Positions 1 to 44,509 of a DNA stretch of 64,000 nucleotides are shown one piece after another. The notes under the pieces are model-generated. The model was not told where the DNA came from. It saw only the letters and a list, made by a program, of their open reading frames with translations, and did not search any database. Location: positions 768,001 to 832,000 of the forward strand of contig JBEKFP010000001.1 in the NCBI GenBank assembly GCA_050013255.1, written 5' to 3'. Position numbers and translations under genes: made by a program. The stretch is from Candidatus Bathyarchaeia archaeon (lineage in GTDB: Archaea > Thermoproteota > Bathyarchaeia > 40CM-2-53-6). Numbering within the stretch: the first letter of the stretch is position 1; each line of letters opens with the position of its first letter.

Positions 1-223
1 CACTCCTTAATTCTTGAATCTGTAAAGAGTGTTTCTAGTAAGATGAAAAGTTTGTTTTGCATAACCTGAGTTTCAGAATAAAATCCCGCTTGAGCAGAGT
101 GCACCTTGAAGCGGAGAACCTGGAACGACAGCTAGCAAAACTGACCGCGCCTTTGGCATACTGGAACAGATGATGGCCAGGCCGGGGAAGACCAAGGTTC
201 ACCCTTAGAGACGCTTCATTTCA

Positions 224-1180
224 GTGGCATGTGCTTCAGGTTTATCTGCCCAGACGTTTTCTTCTATGGTCTGCATGGGGTTGGGTGGCGGAAAGTTGGA
301 TCAAGCGGCGTTTACTGAGATTGCTTTTGAGAGCGCGAAAGACGAGTATACAGATTTTGCTGTGTACAAGAGGTTGTCGGAACTTAGGTTCAAGACCCGT
401 GAATTTAGCAGAACACTTCGCCGACTTGCCGGTATGGAATACCGCCATTACATTCTCTGGAAAAAGTATTGCCCGGGAAGAAAGCCCACAATTAACAAGC
501 TCACTGTTTACATGATCGTTTTCCTCAGATTCATCTTAGGCGTAACCTTCGCAGTAAGGTACCTCGAACGGAATGAGAAGAATACTATCAAGAAGTACCG
601 TGATCTAGCGTACATGATTCCGTCGAAGGATAAGAAGCAATACAACGAAATGATCGCGGACGAAGAAGAACATGAGATGAAGCTCTCAGATTTCAATGAA
701 CCCCAGATCAAATATATTTCCTTCATAGTGCTAGGCTTGGCGGACGCGCTGGTTGAAATCGCGGGCATCCACGCTGGCTCGCTGGGGATTTACAATTCAA
801 CAGAGCTGGCAGGGTTGGCCGGGATAATTGCTGGAGCAGCTGCGTCGGTAGCCATGGCGTCGGCCGCGTACGCGCAGGCAAAGACAGGTTTCAAGGGATC
901 CGCGGCGCTTTCAGCCGTCTACACTGGAGTGTCTTACTTCGTTACAGCGGTGATCTTGGCGACGCCGTACTTCCTGACGAAGGTTATGTTTGACGCGTTA
1001 GGTGCCTCGCTGTTCTTTGCTGTGCTGCTAATAGCTTTCATAAGCTTCTACGGCGCCGTCATTTCCGGAGCTGCATTCAAGAAGGACTTCATAGAGATCA
1101 CAAGCATAATGTTTGGTGCGACGATTGCCCTATACTTGCTTGGGACAGCAATCAAGTACTTGACTAGGATAACTATCTAG
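224..1180 (+). CDS. VIT1/CCC1 family Fe/Mn transporter with N-terminal ferritin/rubrerythrin-like domain (true start probably at about 275-281)
   Basis: ExxH motifs (MEYRHY, DEEEHE), then VIT1-type 'FIVLGLADALVEIAG' and about 5 TM helices. Confidence 0.85.
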   Translation: MACASGLSAQTFSSMVCMGLGGGKLDQAAFTEIAFESAKDEYTDFAVYKRLSELRFKTREFSRTLRRLAGMEYRHYILWKKYCPGRKPTINKLTVYMIVFLRFILGVTFAVRYLERNEKNTIKKYRDLAYMIPSKDKKQYNEMIADEEEHEMKLSDFNEPQIKYISFIVLGLADALVEIAGIHAGSLGIYNSTELAGLAGIIAGAAASVAMASAAYAQAKTGFKGSAALSAVYTGVSYFVTAVILATPYFLTKVMFDALGASLFFAVLLIAFISFYGAVISGAAFKKDFIEITSIMFGATIALYLLGTAIKYLTRITI

Positions 1181-1247
1181 AGAATCCTCCCCCTGCGAAC
1201 TGGAGAACGTAATAGTCGGCGACAAGAAGCTCGTTTCTGGTGAGACT

Positions 1248-1646
1248 GTGTTATCAGCCCCGGAAGTTGAGTACCTGAAGAATCAACGCCTCGCGAGGAT
1301 TGCGACTGCGTCCCCACAAGGCGAACCTGAAGTTTCCCCAGTGGCCTTCGAGTATGATGGCAAATATTTCTACGTCGGAAGCCACGACCAGTCAATCTTC
1401 TTCAAGACTCGAAGGTACAAGAACATCAAGAACGGAAATGCGCGAGTTTCTCTTGTAATAGATGACCTGCAGTCGGTTGACCCCTGGAGGCCGCGTGGGA
1501 TCAAAGTCCGCGGAACAGCCGAGGTTGTAGAACATGAAGGAATGTTCGGAAAAGGAAGTTACCTACGTATCAGTCCGCAAGTTACGATAAGTTGGGGAAT
1601 TGAACCGGCAAAAGAGGGACAATGGTACTCTAAGAAGCAGCACTAA
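1248..1646 (+). CDS. PPOX-class (pyridoxamine 5'-phosphate oxidase-like) F420/FMN-dependent oxidoreductase
   Basis: 'LARIATASPQGEPEVSPV', 'NARVSLVIDD...WRPRGIKVRGTAE' split-barrel motifs. Confidence 0.85.
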   Translation: MLSAPEVEYLKNQRLARIATASPQGEPEVSPVAFEYDGKYFYVGSHDQSIFFKTRRYKNIKNGNARVSLVIDDLQSVDPWRPRGIKVRGTAEVVEHEGMFGKGSYLRISPQVTISWGIEPAKEGQWYSKKQH

Positions 1647-1657
1647 TCCCTGCGCAG

Positions 1658-2089
1658 TCATTTGTGCTTTTTCGCGAGTAAGTTATCAATACTTAGCGCG
1701 GGGCTGCCCGTGAAGAGCAGCACTAATCCTCCGGCGAAAAGGGCGTAGTCATGGGCTAATCCAATGTTCCCTGTGAGCACGCCAGTGGTGCCTGTTATGG
1801 CAAACTCAACGACTGGCCAGATGGCTGCAAGCCTTGTCGCCAAACCCAAGATGAGGGCGATCGCCCCTAGAGTCTCGAAGAGCGTGAATAGGTAAGTCAT
1901 TGGCACTACGGAGCCTGATCCAAACAATGTCCGAACGAGGCCGTTTGATACTGGATGGCCTGCGGCTAGCGCAATCCAACGTGGAGTATCGCTGATTAGC
2001 CAGAACGAGGCAATAACCAACCGAATGACAACATAGACGTATTTGACAGAGCCCCAAGGCTCAGAAAACAAGAACGAACCAAACTTCAA
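1658..2089 (-). CDS. DoxX family membrane protein
   Basis: 'ETLGAIALILGLATRLAA' and 'GSPALSID' DoxX signatures; 4 TM. Confidence 0.8.
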   Translation of the reverse strand: MKFGSFLFSEPWGSVKYVYVVIRLVIASFWLISDTPRWIALAAGHPVSNGLVRTLFGSGSVVPMTYLFTLFETLGAIALILGLATRLAAIWPVVEFAITGTTGVLTGNIGLAHDYALFAGGLVLLFTGSPALSIDNLLAKKHK

Positions 2090-2367
2090 GAAACCATCAC
2101 TTCATCCTCCTTGCTCCTCACGAATTTAAGCCTATCAAGAAATTCCCAGAAGAACCCGAGTTGAAATGAATCGGAGAAGGACAGCGGAGATTTGCCGTGG
2201 TGTTGCGGGTTTGCTGGGCGTGCAGATTTAGTTGGGCGAAATTAATGCATAGAGCTTTTCTATTCTGCGGTGCGGCGTAGGGTTCTCATTTTCTACGCCG
2301 CTCTACGTTCTGCCGCCGTGCTGTGGTCTTCACGCATTTCAAGTTCTATATTTTATAATTCTTCGGC

Positions 2368-2433
2368 GTGTCGTCGTCGTTCCCATTAGCGTTCCTACCG
2401 TCGTTCGTATTAGCGTTCGTCGTTCCTACCGTC
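2368..2433. repeat. Short imperfect tandem repeat built from GTCGTTC / ATTAGCGTTC / CTACC units
   Basis: gtcgttcccattagcgttcctacc-gtcgttcgtattagcgttc-gtcgttcctacc seen directly. Confidence 0.7.
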
Positions 2434-2462
2434 ACAAAGTTAATCTAGTAATGAGCGGCGGG

Positions 2463-2490
2463 GGCGGCGCACCACCATACCCACACTCAC
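2463..2490 (+). repeat. 28-bp att-like site, copy 1
   Basis: ggcggcgcacc-accata-cccacactcac; matches the family consensus. Confidence 0.6.
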
Positions 2491-2521
2491 AGGAAAACGG
2501 AGAACTACTATGGTCGCATCA

Positions 2522-3313
2522 CTATCTACTCGGTACGATAGTCTCGTTCAACCAAGTGATGATTTCGTCGCTAGGTAGGTCCGGCCTGTACTGATTACTC
2601 GGCATATAGCGATGGTCAAGAGCGTCACCTATTCGGACCATCAGCTTATGGTTAGGAAGATGTTCTCTCCAAGTTCGAGCCTGTTGGACATTCACCTCTT
2701 CATCCTTTCCCCCGTGGAGAATAAGCAGTGGAAGATTGGGATAAGGAAGGAACACCTTCCAATTGTCTTCCAATGCTAACTCCTCAAGAAGCCGCCCCAC
2801 AGGACGGTCCATTCCAAGCATATCCGATGGATCTCTACTCATCAACATCTGTTTCATCTGCGAAGAGGCTGGTCCCCCCTGAGCTGCAATGACATCCCCA
2901 ATGTTCGTCGCAATCCCGCCTAGAAGAATCACCCCCGACATCTGACTCAACGGCAAAGCTCTAACATAGAGCGTTCCCTCACTCCAAGCGAAAACAATCC
3001 GTTTGCCATTAGGGAGATTCGTCCAAATCTGTTGTAACTGTTGACAGAGACGCATGTAGCTCGTTCTCCTGTAATCATTGAAGTTAATGCGAGTGTCACT
3101 TACACCTGGCTTTGAATATCGAGCTACAGTCCAACCTTTGGCGCACAGTCGAATCGAAAGATCTCTGAAGAAAGGTTCGCTCGCATAACGAACATCGCGT
3201 GAGGCGCCGGGAATCACGCCGTCCACATTGAAGGGAGCGCTGCCATGAATGAGAAGTATCGTTCCTAGAGAATAGTCTAAAGAAGAACGTTCGATGATCA
3301 TTTCGTTTGACAT
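2522..3313 (-). CDS. Alpha/beta hydrolase (serine hydrolase)
   Basis: 'LLIHGS', nucleophile elbow A-W-S-E-G, 'LILHGGKDEEV' Asp, 'LDH' His. Confidence 0.8.
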   Translation of the reverse strand: MSNEMIIERSSLDYSLGTILLIHGSAPFNVDGVIPGASRDVRYASEPFFRDLSIRLCAKGWTVARYSKPGVSDTRINFNDYRRTSYMRLCQQLQQIWTNLPNGKRIVFAWSEGTLYVRALPLSQMSGVILLGGIATNIGDVIAAQGGPASSQMKQMLMSRDPSDMLGMDRPVGRLLEELALEDNWKVFLPYPNLPLLILHGGKDEEVNVQQARTWREHLPNHKLMVRIGDALDHRYMPSNQYRPDLPSDEIITWLNETIVPSR

Positions 3314-3400
3314 TGACTAGCCTGCCGGGTTTTCAACTAGTTATCGTTTATGGAAGACTCGTAGAATCAGCTGGAGTGGCGTGACTAGTCGTTCGTTCTG

Positions 3401-3428
3401 GTGTGTGTGGGTCTAATGGTGCGCGCAC
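3401..3428 (-). repeat. 28-bp att-like site, copy 2
   Basis: revcomp gtgcgcgcacc-attaga-cccacacacac. Confidence 0.7.
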
Positions 3429-3846
3429 ACACACGAAAATTGGGCGGTTCAAATTCCTCCACCAACCTCTCAAGCGTAGTAATTCAGGTTGCTAATATCG
3501 CCCGATTCAGGGATTAATTGTCGAGCAATCATGCGTTGGACACCTCCAGTTTTTCATCTAGAGAGGATGAGAACTAACGTACGAAATGACTAGTTCTTCG
3601 AAATCCGTAAGAAAGCGCTATCCTACGAAGTTCGCCTTCTAATCGGATCATAACTCTAATGAAGGCCAACTTTGGATCTTGGGGGCCTCCCCCCTAATGC
3701 ACCAGAGAGAAGAGGGCGTAGGACTCGTTTCTCAGATTCTAGTGGGCCCCGTCACGAAGGCTGATGATTATCTGAAAGTATCCAGTGAAAATGCGTCCTT
3801 GTTTACCATTCTATCTATATCCCCCGCACTATTAGCCCCCCAAGAA

Positions 3847-4098
3847 ATGGGGCAATCAAAAGGGTTATTGACGACAGTTGCACATCTATTTTCGATGAAA
3901 TTGAAGTTAGACGCCGAAATTAAGTCAATTAATCTCACTTTTGCGCAGCTATTATCGCTCTTGTTTGTAGTTGTATACATAGGCGTCATATTAGGTGGTC
4001 TGGCTACTGGGAATCTCAAATATGACCAGGTCTCAGGGAGCTTGGGTGGAATCGTAACGGGAATACTCGCTGGTCTCGGTCTCTCCAAATCGCCATAG
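3847..4098 (+). CDS. Small 2-TM membrane protein (83 aa; ORF track extends to 3679)
   Basis: Two hydrophobic helices, one with GxxxG repeats; ATG at 3847 preferred. Confidence 0.55.
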   Translation: MGQSKGLLTTVAHLFSMKLKLDAEIKSINLTFAQLLSLLFVVVYIGVILGGLATGNLKYDQVSGSLGGIVTGILAGLGLSKSP

Positions 4099-4121
4099 AA
4101 GTTGCCGCAATAGTTTCGTAC

Positions 4122-4149
4122 GTGTGCGCACCATTACACCACACACACG
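4122..4149 (+). repeat. 28-bp att-like site, copy 3
   Basis: gtgtgcgcacc-attaca-ccacacacacg. Confidence 0.7.
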
Positions 4150-4231
4150 AAGACGGTCGTTTCTTTGATCTCACAAGTATTCGCGAAGGTATTGTGGGCA
4201 CATCTCGTAAGGAAGGCATCGATTAGCGCTG

Positions 4232-5710
4232 TCAGCTTTCAGGTTCTTCTTCGATGTTCCATGCCTTTTCGATTCCCCTGATTCTGTAGATGAGCAACTT
4301 GATGCGTTGCAACACGTATGCCATGAATGTCTCTTCTTGGTGGTAGGCTCTTTCGAGGATTGCTTCCTCCGATAGGAACGCTTCCTTCATTTCATGCAAC
4401 TCTTTCTTCGGGGAGAAGAATGTATACACTGGAACGCCGACAGCAAGGAGTGCGAGTGAGATCAAGATCTGCTGCCTCGACACTTGTGTCATCAGTACAG
4501 TTGAGAAAATAATGGTCAGCGCTGGAATGAGTATTGTCCACAACCCCTTTGGTGAGGATCTTAGATGTCTTCTCTCCAGAATGAGAGCCGAGATGCCGGT
4601 TGCGAGGTATGCTAGTGACAAAAGGAAGACAGAGCTGTTCACCAATGCAGATAGCGTGTTGACGAGGCTCGCGATGAAGGCTGTTGAACAAAGTACAGCT
4701 AACCCAATGTAAGGCGTGTGGTATGATTTGTGCAATCTGCTGAAGGCTCGAGGAAGATACCCGTCAATTGACATGGCGAAAGTCAATCGTGACGTCCCCA
4801 TCGTCCCTGACTCATCAGCGCCCATAATCGATATCAGGGCACCAACACCTACTACAAGGCTCCCAATCCATGCCAAAACGGGCGAGAAACTGAGGATATT
4901 CGCAGCTGCAACAACCAATGGTGCTTGTGATGAAGCTAAAGTATGTTGATCAACGACACCAATTACTACAAAGTTAGTAGCCATGTAGATCAAGGCCGCA
5001 ATGAGCATCCCAACCGTCAGTGCCCGCGGAATTGTCTTCTTTGGATCTTGAATTTCATTCGCCGGAAGAGTGGACAACTCAAAACCTGCATACGCCCAGA
5101 AGACTATCACCAACACTTGGCCGACATTTTGTAAATTTCCGTCAGGAAAAGCTTGGAAACGAGAGGATATCATTTGCGGTTGTATCGCGAGAAAGACACC
5201 TCCCAAACACATGAGTAGAAGCAGAGGTGTCACTTTCGCGATGGTCAAGGAGTCATTGAACTTACTCGCCTCCCTCACGCCAACGACATTAGTTACGAAA
5301 ATGATCAGCATGAATGCGCCTTTGAGTAGGATTTGGGTTACTGAGTCTAGGTTCGGAACGAACGCAAGGAAGTACTGAATAAAAGCTACTGGGAAGACGG
5401 CTAGAGAGAACCATTCAGCGAGCACGAGAGCCCACCCCACCATAAACCCGCTAAATTGTCCAGCCGCTTCTTTCGCGTACACATATGGTCCTCCAACTCT
5501 CGGGAAAATAGCGGCACAATATCCGAACGATAGTGCGACAACAGTCGCCATCACACCACCAATTAACCAGATTAGAATAGAGGTGGGCCCTAGGAGCTTC
5601 GCACAGAGAGCCGCGGCCACATAGATGTCGGCACCTATAGTTGCGCCAACAACAAGGTTTGTAGTATCAAAGGCATTCAATTGCCTTCTGAGAGTCACTC
5701 TTGTCTTCAA
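4232..5710 (-). CDS. APC family amino acid permease
   Basis: 'VVGATIGADIY', 'GGPYVYA', 'FWAYAGFE'; about 12 TM. Confidence 0.9.
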   Translation of the reverse strand: MKTRVTLRRQLNAFDTTNLVVGATIGADIYVAAALCAKLLGPTSILIWLIGGVMATVVALSFGYCAAIFPRVGGPYVYAKEAAGQFSGFMVGWALVLAEWFSLAVFPVAFIQYFLAFVPNLDSVTQILLKGAFMLIIFVTNVVGVREASKFNDSLTIAKVTPLLLLMCLGGVFLAIQPQMISSRFQAFPDGNLQNVGQVLVIVFWAYAGFELSTLPANEIQDPKKTIPRALTVGMLIAALIYMATNFVVIGVVDQHTLASSQAPLVVAAANILSFSPVLAWIGSLVVGVGALISIMGADESGTMGTSRLTFAMSIDGYLPRAFSRLHKSYHTPYIGLAVLCSTAFIASLVNTLSALVNSSVFLLSLAYLATGISALILERRHLRSSPKGLWTILIPALTIIFSTVLMTQVSRQQILISLALLAVGVPVYTFFSPKKELHEMKEAFLSEEAILERAYHQEETFMAYVLQRIKLLIYRIRGIEKAWNIEEEPES

Positions 5711-5787
5711 ACCTGTCCCCTGTATTCGTCGTGTACGACTAGTTAGATACTAAAGTGTTGGAGAGTTTCTATCAATTGTACCCTTGT

Positions 5788-5815
5788 GTTTGGGCATCAT
5801 TAGTCCACACACTGA
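5788..5815 (+). repeat. 28-bp att-like site, degenerate copy 4
   Basis: gtttgggcatc-attagt-ccacacactga; 20/28 identical to copy 3; intergenic. Confidence 0.4.
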
Positions 5816-5987
5816 CCCAAGTCAGTCTGAAGTATACTCTTGCCGCAACGATTCTATCATTATTAAGAAAGAGCGTCATGATTCTCTTAGCCTCGTTCAT
5901 CGTGTCGTCAGCCAGCTTGTTTGATGACGCCCGCGGCGCGCAACATATTTTAGCCATTGATGAGGATACACGTTCAGAGGCAAGCTC

Positions 5988-7328
5988 TTGGAAAAACGTT
6001 TGAGTATTGAAGATCTAAGACGTTTCTCAAGGTCCTTCAACAAGGACCGAAAGAACATACTTGCCTTGAATGCCGTCACAGAAAATGGCATAGCGGCAGT
6101 TGCCTTAAGCAGAAAGGAGGTGGACAAACAAAATTTCACCTTTAGCGATCTTATCGACTCTCCAGATGCCACTAATCAAGAAAGATCAGGAAGATGCTGG
6201 TTATTTTCTGGACTAAGTACACTGGCTCTTGAAGCGATGAAAAAGTTAGATCTAAGGACATTTGAGCTTTCCGAAATATACCAGATGTTTTGGGACAAAC
6301 TAGAGAAAGCCAACTATTTCCTTGAAAACATAATTGAAACAAAGGAAGAGCCCTTGAATGGCAGGCTGGTCAGTTCGCTTCTTTCAGATCCAATATCAGA
6401 TGGCGGTCAATGGAATATGTTTTCGAATCTCATAAAGAAGTACGGAGTTGTACCAAAAACATTCATGCCAGAAACAGAGAACAGCAACAATTCTGATCCC
6501 ATGAATGCTCTATTTGTGACGAAACTAAGAGAATATGCTAAGATACTCCGAGAGATGAACGAGGCTGGGGCTTCTACGACAGAGCTAAGAGAGAAAAAAG
6601 GTGAATTAATGGAAGAATTCTACAAGTTGCTGTGCATCAACCTTGGCGTTCCTCCAGAGACATTTTACTGGGAGTGGCGGGATAAGAACGGCATTTTCCA
6701 TAGAAGGGGGAATATTACCCCAGTTGAGTTCTATAATGAATATGTCGGACTAGATCTTGATGATTTGGTGAGTCTTATCAACGCCCCAACAAAAGACAAA
6801 CCCTTCAATAAATTGTACACTGTCAAGTATCTCGGCAACGTGGTCGGTGGGCAAGATACTCGTTACCTCAATGTCGACTTGAAGACGTTGAAGAAAGCAA
6901 CTGTAGACATGATCAAAGGTAATCATGCCGTATGGTTCGGATGTGACGTAGCTAAGATGCTGCAGACGCAGATGGGCGCAATGGATCTAAGCATCTATGA
7001 CTACGAATTAGTCTATGGTGCAAAGTTCCAACTCAATAAGGCTGCAAGATTAGATTATGGAGATAGTGAGATGACTCACGCCATGGTGATTACGGGCGTT
7101 GACCTCGATGAGCAGGGCAACCCCAAGAAATGGCGAGTTGAAAACAGCTGGGGAGCCTCCATAGGGGATCAAGGATACATGTACATGATGGATGAATGGT
7201 TCGACGAATACCTCTACGAGGTTGTTGTAAGGAAAGAGTATCTGCCTCCAGAACTCCTGAGAATCCTTGACACTGAGCCGGTAGTTGTGCCTTTCTGGGA
7301 CCCGATGGGTACCTTGGCAAGGAATTAA
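5988..7328 (+). CDS. pepC: Aminopeptidase C / bleomycin hydrolase (peptidase C1B)
   Basis: 'NQERSGRCWLF' (Cys), 'MTHAMVITG' (His), 'WRVENSWG' (Asn). Confidence 0.93.
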   Translation: MEKRLSIEDLRRFSRSFNKDRKNILALNAVTENGIAAVALSRKEVDKQNFTFSDLIDSPDATNQERSGRCWLFSGLSTLALEAMKKLDLRTFELSEIYQMFWDKLEKANYFLENIIETKEEPLNGRLVSSLLSDPISDGGQWNMFSNLIKKYGVVPKTFMPETENSNNSDPMNALFVTKLREYAKILREMNEAGASTTELREKKGELMEEFYKLLCINLGVPPETFYWEWRDKNGIFHRRGNITPVEFYNEYVGLDLDDLVSLINAPTKDKPFNKLYTVKYLGNVVGGQDTRYLNVDLKTLKKATVDMIKGNHAVWFGCDVAKMLQTQMGAMDLSIYDYELVYGAKFQLNKAARLDYGDSEMTHAMVITGVDLDEQGNPKKWRVENSWGASIGDQGYMYMMDEWFDEYLYEVVVRKEYLPPELLRILDTEPVVVPFWDPMGTLARN

Positions 7329-7483
7329 TGTCAAATTTGGCCTCCATTCTCTTACGATAGGAAATGGAAATCACACACACATTGAACGCAGTCTTCTCAG
7401 TCGCGCCTACTTTTCCAAGCAGAATCTTTAACCCATCGAGAGCATGAAAGCCAGAAACTGCGGATAGACAGACGTGAATAGCG

Positions 7484-7957
7484 GTGGGAACAAAGCCAAA
7501 GATTGGTGACACGGCTCCTGATTTCGTAGGCCAAACATCTAACGGCATTCGGATTCGTCTCAAGGACTATCTTGGAAAGAAAAATGTGGTACTATACTTC
7601 TACCCTAAGGACGATACCAAAGGATGCACAATCGAAGCCTGCGCCTTCAGAGACAAACTCCAACCGATAGGAGCTCTCTGGACAGAAGTAGTTGGCGTTA
7701 GTGTGGACACCGTCGAATCTCACAAGAAATTTGCCGAGAAAAATGGCCTGAATTTCACACTGGTCAGCGATCAGGATAAGCAGATCTCGAAGACCTACGG
7801 AGTTCTAAGTGATGATGGCTCGAAAGCAGACAGGGTTACATTCATAATTGACAAAGAAGGCAAGATTGCTAAGATCTTTACCAACGTCGATGTCACAAGA
7901 CATTCGAATGAAATCGTCGATACACTCAAGCAACTCTTTAAGAAGACGAGCTCCTGA
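7484..7957 (+). CDS. bcp: Peroxiredoxin, BCP/PrxQ type
   Basis: 'YFYPKDDTKGCTIEACAFRD' with CxxxxC. Confidence 0.93.
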   Translation: MGTKPKIGDTAPDFVGQTSNGIRIRLKDYLGKKNVVLYFYPKDDTKGCTIEACAFRDKLQPIGALWTEVVGVSVDTVESHKKFAEKNGLNFTLVSDQDKQISKTYGVLSDDGSKADRVTFIIDKEGKIAKIFTNVDVTRHSNEIVDTLKQLFKKTSS

Positions 7958-8476
7958 GAGCTCTTAGACCTTAGGAGTTGACGACGAGTCAAAATCCGGC
8001 CTTGTCATCCTTCATCCAGAAAGCGGCGTTGCTCTTGGACGACGGGTCTACTAGCCATGCAGTTCATGGCTTGAGCAAGTCGGCTCAGCCGACGGCATGG
8101 ATTAAGAGCTGACAAAGATTCATTAGGTTGCGTTCGAAAGTTATGGATGCGGCTTACGCCGTGTGGTTCGCATGCATCAAGAATCACCGTTTAAGGGTAT
8201 GAACTCGGCCAGCGTCGGCCGGTAAACTCCCCTATTTTTGGGCGTTCCTCTGATCATCGACTTGCGACTAAAAAGACGGCTTTCACAGATTTTCGTAGTT
8301 GCAAGCCTGGGTCATGACTATTGGCACATTGGGTGATTGTTATGTGCCGAGGATTATGTGCCGTATGACCAGTATGACAGAGAGTGTGACGACGCGAACA
8401 GGAAGCCGATCAATAGCATTACGAACAGTGCTTTTTGACCGCCGATATTCCACCGTTGCATGCTAACCCACTGTGC

Positions 8477-42162: not shown

Positions 42163-43347
42163 GTGAAGATAACCAACGTTGACATTTTCCAACTTGGCGA
42201 ACCCGCTGAGACGGGGAGCGCAACATGGGCTGCTAACTCCATTGTCATTAAGCTCACGACCTCCAACGGCCTTGTTGGCTACGGCGAGGCAGTGCCTACG
42301 TTGAGAGTTCAACCAGTGATACAGTCTCTTCGTGAAGTTGCTCGAGTATACATCGGCAATGATCCTTGTGACGTTGAGCGTAATTGGCATGAGTGGCACA
42401 AGCATGACTTCTACCTACCTGTTTCCTTCGAGTCGACAACCGCGGTTAGCGCATTCGACATTGCCTGCTGGGACATCATCGGAAAACAGTTCGGTGCACC
42501 CCTACACCGACTGATAGGTGGGTCGACGAGAACGAAGGTACGCCTCTACTCAAACGGATGGTACAACGATTGCGTGACGCCAAGCCAATTCGCGGAACGT
42601 GCGAAGAAGTTTGCTGGAATGGGTTACACTGGCCTGAAGTTCGATCCCTTCGGGAATTACTATGACTGGATCGATGCGAAAGGGTTGAGCTTAGCGTACG
42701 ACCGGGTTAAGGCCGTGCGGGATGCCACTGGTGGGAGAGTGGAGTTGCTCATAGAGCACCATGGAAGATTTAACCCCAACTCTGCCATCATGATCGCTAA
42801 GAGACTTCGTGAATTTGACCCGCTCTTTATGGAGGAACCAGTTCACCCAGAGAACATAGACGGGCTGAGAAAGTACAGAGAGGCAGTCGATGTTAGAGTT
42901 GCCCTCGGTGAGAGAATCTTAACCAAAGAGCAGGCGGTCAATATTCTCTCGGACAACCTTACTGATTTCCTTCAACCCGACATAACAAACATAGGCGGAG
43001 TAACTCAGGCGTTGAAAGTTGCGGCCATCGCTGAGGCATACGGAGTTGAGATCGCATTCCACAACGCGTTCGGCCCTATCCAAAACGCGGTAACTATTCA
43101 ACTAGACGCGGCCATACCTAACTTCCTGATTCAGGAATCTTTCTACGATGTTTTTCCATCTTGGAAACGGCAATTGGTGAAGGATCAGTCAAGGGTTGAG
43201 AACGGCTACGCCGCCGTGCCAACAAAGCCTGGCCTAGGCGTTGAGGTAGACGAGAAGGTTCTAGAGGATCATAAGGCGGAAGGTCAAGAATACTTCAACC
43301 CAGACGAACCAGTCTGGGTGGTAAAGAACACTTGGAAGAACCCGTAG
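42163..43347 (+). CDS. gad: D-gluconate/D-galactonate dehydratase (enolase superfamily, Sulfolobus GAD type)
   Basis: 'GSATWA', 'GYGEAVPTLR', 'KFDPFG', 'IEHHGRFN', 'EEP', 'GER', 'AFHNAFG', 'EPVWVVK.TW'. Confidence 0.88.
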   Translation: MKITNVDIFQLGEPAETGSATWAANSIVIKLTTSNGLVGYGEAVPTLRVQPVIQSLREVARVYIGNDPCDVERNWHEWHKHDFYLPVSFESTTAVSAFDIACWDIIGKQFGAPLHRLIGGSTRTKVRLYSNGWYNDCVTPSQFAERAKKFAGMGYTGLKFDPFGNYYDWIDAKGLSLAYDRVKAVRDATGGRVELLIEHHGRFNPNSAIMIAKRLREFDPLFMEEPVHPENIDGLRKYREAVDVRVALGERILTKEQAVNILSDNLTDFLQPDITNIGGVTQALKVAAIAEAYGVEIAFHNAFGPIQNAVTIQLDAAIPNFLIQESFYDVFPSWKRQLVKDQSRVENGYAAVPTKPGLGVEVDEKVLEDHKAEGQEYFNPDEPVWVVKNTWKNP

Positions 43348-43506
43348 CATAGGCACGCGCCCGTATTGTTTCTGAGACTCAAAGAGAGCTTGCATACTGT
43401 CTGAAAATCAAATGATTAGAAGGCAATTAACTCGTTTTCAAGTAGGTATTAGTTTGATAAGCAAAGATTTTCTTTTGACTAGGCGCAATCACACACGGGA
43501 CCTCCT

Positions 43507-44355
43507 ATGTCTTGGAAATATACCGATGAATATTACAAGAATTATACACGTGAAACTTGGGACGAGTGTGCAGAAAAGTACATCCCCATAATGCAACAGC
43601 TCAGACCATACCACAAAGCGTTCCTCGAGAGCCTGAAGCCCATGCCTGGTGAAGCCGTACTAGACGTTTGCACAGGGCCAGGTGAACCTGCCATGACAAT
43701 CGCCCAAATGGTGTCACCCTCAGGGAATGTGGTTGGCGTAGACCTGTCGCGCAACATGACGGAAATGGCGTCCAAGACGGCGCAGAAGAGAGAATTATCT
43801 AATGTAAAATTCTTGAACATGGACGCTGAGAAGCTTGATTTTCCATCGAACGTCTTTGATGTTGCAGTTTCATGTTTCGGTTTTCAAATTGTGACTGATC
43901 CTGAAGCTGCGGCGAGAGAAATCTTCAGGGTCCTCAAGCCTGGGGGCAGAGCTGGGTTTACTGTTTGGAGCAGCGGAGACCGGGCTCCAGCCCTCGACGT
44001 CATTATTGGGCCAATGATGGAGCATGCAACCCCAGACGAGAACGGCTACCTACCTACCCCGTATGAATTGGGCGGCCCGGACGAACTTGCAGCGATGTTG
44101 CGGAAACTTGGCTTTGAAAATACCAAGGAGATTCGAATCACAGAGGAGTGGATCGCGCGCGACTCAGAAGAATTTCTTAACACAATTCTTGAAGGAACAC
44201 CGCTCGGACACTCTCTGAGCGAAGAAGACATGGAAATTCAACAGAAGGTTTTGGAAAAAACGAGAGCTAACATAAAACGCTACGCTACTCCTAGCGGTGT
44301 CAGAATCCCCGCGGAATGCGTGCAAGTTTTCGCATCTAAATCAGCCAATGCTTAA
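43507..44355 (+). CDS. Class I SAM-dependent methyltransferase
   Basis: 'VLDVCTGPG', 'GVDLS', 'MDAEKLDF', 'RVLKPGGR'. Confidence 0.88.
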   Translation: MSWKYTDEYYKNYTRETWDECAEKYIPIMQQLRPYHKAFLESLKPMPGEAVLDVCTGPGEPAMTIAQMVSPSGNVVGVDLSRNMTEMASKTAQKRELSNVKFLNMDAEKLDFPSNVFDVAVSCFGFQIVTDPEAAAREIFRVLKPGGRAGFTVWSSGDRAPALDVIIGPMMEHATPDENGYLPTPYELGGPDELAAMLRKLGFENTKEIRITEEWIARDSEEFLNTILEGTPLGHSLSEEDMEIQQKVLEKTRANIKRYATPSGVRIPAECVQVFASKSANA

Positions 44356-44394
44356 TCAACCGTTAGAGTTCGACTGGACCTAAACTCAACTAGT

Positions 44395-44434
44395 GTCTGT
44401 GTGGGTCTAATGCTGCGTACATCTAGATTTGAAC
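44395..44434 (-). repeat. att-like site copy 5, including a degenerate tRNA T-loop/acceptor 3' half
   Basis: revcomp G-TTCAAAT-CTAGA-TGTACGC-A-GCA-TTAGACCCACACAGAC. Confidence 0.65.
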
Positions 44435-44509
44435 GGTTGTTTTTGCTTGCGTTTGTCGACCCCTTTCGTAGAGGAGAGGTTAAGTTATTGAAGTGGACGA
44501 AATCGTTCC

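Follow-up and report, generated by a model that had tools for sequence, protein, structure and literature searches.

Casposon-type transposition as the probable source of a genus-wide family of tRNA-end-like sites around single genes in Bathyarchaeia

The region analyzed here is a 64,000-nucleotide stretch of DNA (the window; G000:C1:768001-832000) from the 2.46-Mb, three-contig genome of a Candidatus Bathyarchaeia archaeon, and our subject is a family of short sites resembling tRNA 3' ends that separate single genes within it. Near its start the window holds an accessory island with genes for an alpha/beta-hydrolase, a small membrane protein for which no Pfam family was found, an APC amino-acid permease, an aminopeptidase C (Peptidase_C1_2) and a peroxiredoxin (AhpC/TSA); farther along, a methyltransferase gene stands in a separate insertion (Table 1). 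An initial annotation of the window had placed four related sites around the first three genes and a fifth at 44395-44422 on the minus strand. The four have the coordinates and strands given there, the fifth is present, exactly one gene lies between neighboring sites of the cluster, and sites 1-3 alternate in orientation (+, -, +). Edit distances to a 21-nt consensus (CGCACCATTAGACCCACACAC) are 4, 0, 2, 4 and 2 for sites 1 to 5, respectively; the window contains five matches at up to 4 edits, against an average of 0.125 over 40 first-order Markov control sequences; its reversed sequence contains none.

The five sites belong to a family dispersed over the whole genome. A weight-matrix scan identified 91 copies scoring at least 16 bits versus 2 in the reversed genome (0-5 over all control scans), and 97 copies at a threshold of at least 12 bits, 89 of which lie outside genes, as called roughly in this analysis in a genome with a coding share of ~85%. 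Of the 18 genomes sampled within the genus, 17 contain the motif when up to two mismatches are allowed; none of 12 genomes representing other families of the order does. Clustered sites are spaced ~1 kb apart, and the architecture of the window cluster proved general: 28 of the 45 non-empty intervals between neighboring cores (the conserved 14-bp part of each site) contain exactly one gene, and neighboring cores form 28 inverted and 18 direct pairs. The cargo across clusters is ordinary and varied, including methyltransferases, KaiC-like ATPases, a cupin, a radical-SAM enzyme, a UbiA prenyltransferase, an epimerase and transporters. That such sites represent a regulatory motif, i.e. a promoter, terminator or transcription-factor site, or (CA)n low complexity, is extremely improbable. 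Although they are intergenic, with a median distance of 118 bp to the next gene, those in the window lie upstream, downstream and between convergent genes, and the absence of an orientation bias to flanking genes (co-oriented in 49/91 and 57/91 cases) rules out a promoter or terminator; the number of matches is far above that in the controls, hence not due to chance or (CA)n, and the information of the motif resides mainly in the non-repetitive CGCACCA.

Alignment of all copies defines the core as CGCACCA plus seven variable bases, of which TTAGACC is the commonest version, with GCTGACC, GCATACC, TTGATAC and others also occurring. In most copies a CA-rich tip (CACACAC...) lies downstream of the core; upstream there are three main contexts, among others, i.e. 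a tRNA-like leader, the GT-rich tip of a preceding unit and a GC-rich end (GGCGGCGGGGGCGG). The tRNA-like leader consists of GGTTCAAATT, then 7 nt and one further base before CGCACCA, so that in many copies this T-loop box stands ahead of CCA at the spacing of a tRNA (5+7+1 nt), corresponding to T-loop, T-stem, acceptor strand, discriminator and CCA. In this genome CCA is encoded in the tRNA genes, some of which end ...GGTTCAAATCCCGGCGGCCGCACCA. The likeness to a tRNA 3' end, recognized in the initial annotation from the bases around CCA, thus reaches further upstream than had been described. A true tRNA or other known RNA was ruled out, with ARAGORN finding no tRNA in the window and Rfam giving no match for the sites even at E values up to 1; the T-stem is unpaired in the site copies. 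The 11-6-11 parse with inverted arms that had been proposed for the sites did not survive the alignment: only ~5/11 arm positions match, and the left arm is not conserved, its place being taken in many copies by the tRNA-like leader, a GT run or the GC-rich end. As had been stated, the RYYYAAC/GTTRRRY boxes of integron attC are not present in the sites.

The variable bases bear on the origin of the sites. Direct pairs of cores sharing a rare 7-nt variant within 20 kb number 7, compared with 0.9 expected, a value reached in 0 of 2000 shuffles, and inverted pairs of the same kind number 2 for 1.0 expected. In all six of the elements bracketed in this manner a T-loop leader precedes the first core copy, and the element's end precedes the second. 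Because the variable bases are identical within a pair and different between pairs, the pattern indicates duplication of a target by a transposase rather than exchange with a fixed attP/attB. Duplications of 14 bp starting with CGCA flank three elements that encode Cas1 and four Cas1-less elements outside the window; the terminal inverted repeats (TIRs) abutting the target-site duplications (TSDs) are of a CA type and a GC type, and the window units have CA and GT tips. The only Cas1 genes of the genome, at C1:1333417-1334640 and C3:231179-232393, both outside the window, each lie inside a core-bracketed element, and the third Cas1 element, in a relative, has a further stacked element behind it (Table 1).

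The two Cas1 proteins, which are 60% identical to each other, match the Methanosarcina mazei casposase (PDB 6OPM), a Cas1-family transposase, over their full length, including the C-terminal helix-turn-helix (HTH), with E values of 4e-74 and 8e-77, compared with 1e-21 to 1e-24 for Cas1 of CRISPR systems. Their VEG, FLHE and EPFR motifs align with those holding E162, H232 and E247 of the casposase, and, judged by sequence, the Cas1 proteins of the bracketed elements are casposases. Searches of the genome revealed no Cas2 and no effector genes, and there is no integrase in either Cas1 element. The cargo of both elements is of a defense type, with AIPR, DndB-like and weak HATPase matches in one and a protein with the domain named TIR in the other. 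The tRNA-Gln(CTG) gene (within G000:C1:1132371-1132570) is followed at once by sequence resembling the TIR of the 16-kb Cas1 element, and no second copy of the would-be duplication (CGCACCACAACCCT) was found within 40 kb; this is probably a solo end at a natural target. In relative G014, a compact 2.8-kb element (L052:818-3615; contig G014:C8) contains a Cas1 gene and two small open reading frames (ORFs); its inverted repeats are CA-tipped and ACGACG-rich, and its flanking cores are inverted, not direct. Relative G017 has 13 casposase matches on several contigs, some being fragments with internal stop codons, which suggests a burst of the casposase transposon family followed by decay.

These results bear directly on the mechanism put forward in the initial annotation, i.e. 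that the sites are att/dif-like and that an Xer-type or integrase tyrosine recombinase encoded elsewhere captures, excises and inverts the modules. Its view of the sites as mobile-DNA junctions served by an enzyme encoded outside the window stands, and neither of the outcomes that it named as refuting its proposal arose, since matches far outnumber those in controls and relatives have breakpoints at the sites; a tyrosine-recombinase mechanism is very unlikely, given the target duplication and the presence of Cas1 genes in the bracketed elements. Alternating cores with one gene per interval are as seen in pdif modules, the tRNA 3'-end likeness is as seen at many integrase attB sites, and inverted cores would permit inversion. 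However, the sites have no conserved dyad, the sharing of variable bases within and not between flanking pairs points to duplication, and inverted-repeat tips of units abut the core. Nor are integrase genes close to the sites: all three Phage_integrase genes of the genome (C3:28755, C3:131514 and C2:259232) lie at least 20 kb from any core, none is inside a bracketed element, and two of them adjoin unrelated tRNA genes.

We consider that the sites were probably made by casposon-type transposition, i.e. by a Cas1-family transposase, and put the probability of this explanation at roughly 0.65; that the casposase also moves single-gene units today is proposed with less confidence. The target would be the 14-bp CGCACCA+7, a copy of the last bases of a tRNA 3' end, which insertion would duplicate, and the CACACAC after the core and the frequent GTGTG before it would be the tips of the units' TIRs. 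A landing pad would comprise the T-loop box, 7 nt and the core, with pad copies lying far from real tRNA genes. Some pads would lie within the elements' own ~50-bp inverted repeats, such that new units could land in or beside old ones and thereby build arrays. Most units carry one ordinary gene and no enzyme, and would depend on the two casposase genes elsewhere in the genome. Sites 1-4 would then be partly decayed junctions of a stack made up of a solo casposon end and the hydrolase, small membrane-protein and permease units, and site 5 would be a landing pad occupied by the methyltransferase unit. The site family, the target-duplication signature, the Cas1 elements that this brackets and the differences between strains at the sites are shown by the sequences; that the casposase moved the single-gene units lacking Cas1 is inferred, as is the origin of the alternating cores, considered below.

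The individual junctions in the window can be described in these terms. At site 1 the solo end (2315-2467) meets a core that leads into the hydrolase unit's CA tip; the solo end is homologous (E=1e-17) to C3:228079-228264, the end of the Cas1-bearing element, the alignment continues through the core and the next tip, and the core plus CA tip that follow it are near-identical to those at C3:228065. Site 2 is an inverted consensus core with the hydrolase unit on one side and a linker on the other. With its CA tip, ACGACG-rich stretch and T-box-like sequence, this linker (3424-3455) is built like other inter-core linkers and like the TIR of the G014:C8 Cas1-only element in L052; the core expected after it is decayed. 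The ends of the small membrane-protein unit match at 16/22 positions as inverted repeats. Site 4 is present at the equivalent position in G008 and L064, in a form nearer to the consensus (GGCACCATTGGTCC), and a 93% identical copy of the permease in G014 covers only 4165-5790, stopping at the edge of site 4, with no cores present at that copy. Elsewhere the peptidase unit stands alone (G004:C25) or accompanies the permease (G008), and L064 lacks it; in G004:C14 two high-scoring cores enclose the peroxiredoxin unit. The permease and Peptidase_C1_2 genes (window 4232-7328) adjoin in G008:C11, G017:C5, G014:C5 and G031:C52, which suggests that they are a functional pair for peptide or amino-acid use.

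Table 1. Coordinates of the features discussed (window positions unless a contig is named; TSD, target-site duplication; TIR, terminal inverted repeat)
Feature	Coordinates	Strand	Remarks
Accessory island with sites 1-4	2145..8098		strain-variable
Solo right end of GC-tipped Cas1 element	2315..2467	+	ends ...CACAAAGTTAATCTAG..GCGGCGGGGGCGG
Core of site 1, CGCACCACCATACC	2468..2481	+	26.3 bits
Hydrolase unit	2482..3409		CA tip CACACTCAC..., GT tip ...GGTGTGTGTGG; alpha/beta-hydrolase gene 2522-3313 (-)
Core of site 2, CGCACCATTAGACC	3410..3423	-	exact consensus, 41.8 bits
Casposon-TIR-like linker	3424..3455	+	CA tip, spacer, T-loop box GGTTCAAATT
Small membrane-protein unit	3424..4126		gene 3679-4098 (+)
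Core of site 3, CGCACCATTACACC	4127..4140	+	edit distance 2; one base under consensus before CA tip
APC amino-acid permease unit	4141..5792		gene 4232-5710 (-); flanked by sites 3 and 4
Site 4, decayed core GGCATCATTAGTCC then ACACAC	5793..5812	+	edit distance 4
Aminopeptidase C (Peptidase_C1_2) unit	5816..7340		gene 5988-7328 (+)
Peroxiredoxin (AhpC/TSA) unit	7372..7959		gene 7484-7957 (+); CA run 7372-7381 ahead
Single-gene insertion with site 5	43347..44505		1.16 kb; methyltransferase gene 43507-44355 (+)
Core of site 5, CGCAGCATTAGACC	44404..44417	-	29.3 bits; GT tip of methyltransferase unit to left
tRNA-like leader of site 5	44418..44436	-	8 nt + T-loop box (CCGTTCAAATC)
Cas1 element 1 (~16 kb)	C1:1330273-1346555 (L036:8274-19001 + L037:1-5555)		TSD CGCACCATTAGACC, TIR CACACACACACACTTTGAAACGG
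Cas1 element 2	C3:228079-239043 (L035:9080-17001 = C3:228079-236000)		TSD CGCACCAGCATACC, GC-rich TIR
Third Cas1 element	relative G014:C3		CGCACCACTATACC x3 in direct order; T-loop leader before first copy

Comparisons with strains and metagenomes reveal breakpoints at the sites. G004, G018 and G033 lack the island with sites 1-4 at the corresponding locus, which in G014 contains 5.5 kb of different DNA. Contig L064 (ENA ERZ25039477 contig_39181) is from a close strain, being 95.6% identical over window positions 1-2145 and keeping the window's gene order, and its differences from the window fall exactly on sites 1-3: at site 1 a T-loop landing leader replaces 2146-2467, at site 2 there are 271 extra bases, and at site 3 a 287-nt mini-element with inverted repeats (L064:4327-4613; ACACCTATGAAAAGTC...) directly follows the core. 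The mini-element is not in the window, and its end family abuts cores elsewhere in this genome, at C1:197635, 633253 and 1153249 and C2:746093. The best case is the hydrolase unit, which lies between cores in L064 and recurs in different surroundings on the metagenome contigs L065 and L066. On these two contigs the protein is 93% identical (DNA, ~89%), has a forward core on one side and a reverse core on the other, and is adjoined by a nitroreductase unit bracketed likewise. The segment with site 5 is missing in at least 7 relatives that have conserved flanks; methyltransferase homologs in relatives sit without cores, and a search for a second copy of the duplication for site 5 found none. A further island of 8.3 kb (L055:2377-10674; C1:37376-45674), absent from G014, G018, G004 and G033, has five perfectly alternating cores with one gene per interval.

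Two non-coding blocks adjoin these islands. The ~120 nt at 8119-8238, directly after the window island, are 81-83% conserved in G004, G018 and G033 and end CCCCTATTTTT; there is no Rfam match for the block, and the fold of 8110-8240 is no better than that of shuffled sequences (z=-1.4). A small RNA is one possibility for this block, a conserved 3' region another. Beside the 8.3-kb island lies a block highly conserved across the genus (L055:10809-10893), which may be an RNA gene.

Several observations weigh against casposon-type transposition as the source of the sites. Inverted neighboring cores outnumber direct ones, although simple insertion gives direct repeats only; no unit in the window lies between an identical direct 14-bp pair, site 2 being inverted relative to sites 1 and 3; and the 287-nt element of L064 has a core on one side only. 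The borders of the islands (2145/8098, 43347/44505 and C1:37376/45674) are off the cores, and the empty sites in relatives that correspond to the window island, the site-5 segment and the C1:37-46 kb island have neither T-loop box nor core. Cas1 and motif counts only partly correlate across the genus, and G018, G016 and G013 are rich in cores with no Cas1 match for the protein query used. No ORF of either Cas1 element matches the PolB family; the three DNA_pol_B genes of the genome lie elsewhere, on C2, and a DNA_pol_B_2 search gave no match, although its controls were also silent.

Some of these points would be expected if the sites were passive relics of past casposons, the modules being shuffled by homologous or microhomology recombination between ~90 dispersed repeats with no site-specific enzyme acting today. 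The off-core island borders, the empty sites lacking a landing pad, the commonness of inverted cores and the several genomes with many cores and no Cas1 match are consistent with this possibility, as are the resemblance of the site-1 junction to a block copied from the C3 junction and the decay of many cores, e.g. that of site 4. It is nonetheless unlikely: the three Cas1 elements remain intact, their 14-bp duplications being perfect, their casposase genes open and their catalytic motifs conserved, L064 differs by small TIR-bearing insertions exactly at core edges, and repeats of 20-30 bp recombine inefficiently.

The alternation of the cores requires consideration in its own right. The commonest arrangement is a forward core, CA tip, gene, GT tip and reverse core, as in the hydrolase unit, with short linkers of 38-50 bp joining a reverse core to the next forward core; on L065 a gene is enclosed by one symmetrical inverted repeat of ~95 bp that comprises T-loop box, core and tip. 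We infer that landing pads may lie in both inverted repeats of elements, facing inward, with units between facing pads, and that further contributions to the pattern may come from inversions or from paired half-site integrations. Two other layouts were rejected. A long TIR including the core, with the duplication outside it, was dropped as no direct repeats were found outside the inverted cores of the hydrolase unit or of the G014:C8 element, and a palindromic double target with central insertion was dropped as there is only one empty 'facing' pair in the genome.

The same symmetry might be taken to mean that the ~95-bp composite of inverted core, linker and core is a site folded as a single-stranded hairpin, in the style of attC or of repetitive extragenic palindromic (REP) and bacterial interspersed mosaic elements (BIMEs), and used by a non-Cas1 enzyme. 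Composites with two inverted cores 38-50 bp apart are frequent and the long inverted repeats on L065 enclose a single gene, but the second arm is missing in many sites, including all those in the window, Rfam is silent, and no integron-type integrase lies beside any array. There is likewise no Y1 (RAYT/IS200) transposase, a search for PF01797 (Y1, IS200-like transposase) giving no match in the genome, with search controls matching in 6/14 genomes. A hairpin site would also leave the 14-bp direct duplications around the Cas1 elements unexplained, and we regard it as very improbable indeed. Palindromes resembling attC, REP or MITEs had been dropped as candidates following the target-duplication test, the Cas1 findings and the absence of a Y1 transposase.

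A more far-reaching version of the casposase proposal, which we hold only tentatively and think rather unlikely, is that of a working integron-like cassette system, in which the casposase would capture single host genes between casposon ends and insert or swap them at the tRNA-mimicking pads carried in both inverted repeats of the elements. Paired half-site integrations into two facing pads, for example, would then account for the alternating cores.

With respect to known systems, the closest parallel is provided by the family 2 casposons of M. mazei. Their target duplications are 14 bp long, with CGCA at the start, and overlap a tRNA gene's end; the elements need ~30 bp of the tRNA sequence upstream, form tandem stacks and leave solo TIRs behind (PMC6977970, PMC4779613). 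The elements described here share with them a Cas1 with a C-terminal HTH, for which 6OPM is the best full-length PDB match, a 14-bp CGCA duplication at a tRNA 3' end, TIRs, tandem stacking and solo ends, and the T-loop box appears to sit in the stretch corresponding to the ~30-bp upstream leader. They differ in that the Cas1 elements lack a family-B DNA polymerase, a defining feature of the described, self-synthesizing casposons, and in that most units are Cas1-less with one ordinary gene, copies of the target occur in dozens of non-tRNA places and in the elements' own ends, the cores often alternate, and there are ~90 junctions per genome across a Bathyarchaeia genus. The system works like a family 2 casposon, yet is not a textbook member. 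No paper on Cas1-less cargo units turned up in literature searches that paired casposons with MITEs, non-autonomous elements or Bathyarchaeota.

The likeness to pdif modules and integrons is in architecture only. In the pdif modules of Acinetobacter plasmids, XerC/D sites lie in alternating orientation around one or a few genes; the present sites are likewise short, alternate around single accessory genes and depend on an enzyme in trans, but they have no 11-6-11 dyad and no nearby Xer gene, and show instead a target-duplication signature and inverted-repeat tips. Integrons carry an intI gene and attI ahead of their array, in which the attC sites all face one way. Integron gene-cassette arrays resemble those described here in that a recurring site separates the genes, which are mostly single, promoter-poor and diverse in function, whereas no IntI lies beside the present arrays, attC R/L boxes are lacking and orientations are mixed; unlike that of integrons, the chemistry is most likely of a transposase type. 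MITEs and composite transposons include enzyme-less units that have the ends of an autonomous element and are mobilized in trans, and some of the genes studied here are similarly flanked by two short end copies; in the present case the ends are from a Cas1 transposon rather than an insertion sequence, and insertion is site-specific, into a tRNA-like pad. Finally, as in CRISPR arrays, a Cas1-family enzyme would duplicate a short repeat beside a leader at each insertion, giving a repeat-insert-repeat order (PMC6977970). The inserts here differ from CRISPR spacers in being kilobase-sized gene units with inverted-repeat tips, the repeat is of 14 bp, and there are no Cas2 or effector genes.

Casposons are rare, large, self-replicating transposons and have been proposed as the ancestor of CRISPR spacer acquisition. 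In this Bathyarchaeia genus, casposon chemistry appears to have yielded a genus-wide family with ~90 leader-repeat junctions per genome, portable copies of a tRNA-like landing site and dozens of enzyme-less single-gene units. The proposal is directly testable with one purified protein and short oligonucleotides. If correct, it would reveal a second route to integron-like gene cassettes, in Archaea, and would provide a natural example of a Cas1 enzyme that builds repeat-insert-repeat arrays beside a leader, a step assumed by scenarios for the origin of CRISPR; were the units also to prove a working cassette system, the arrays would be living examples of a stage intermediate between casposon and CRISPR array.

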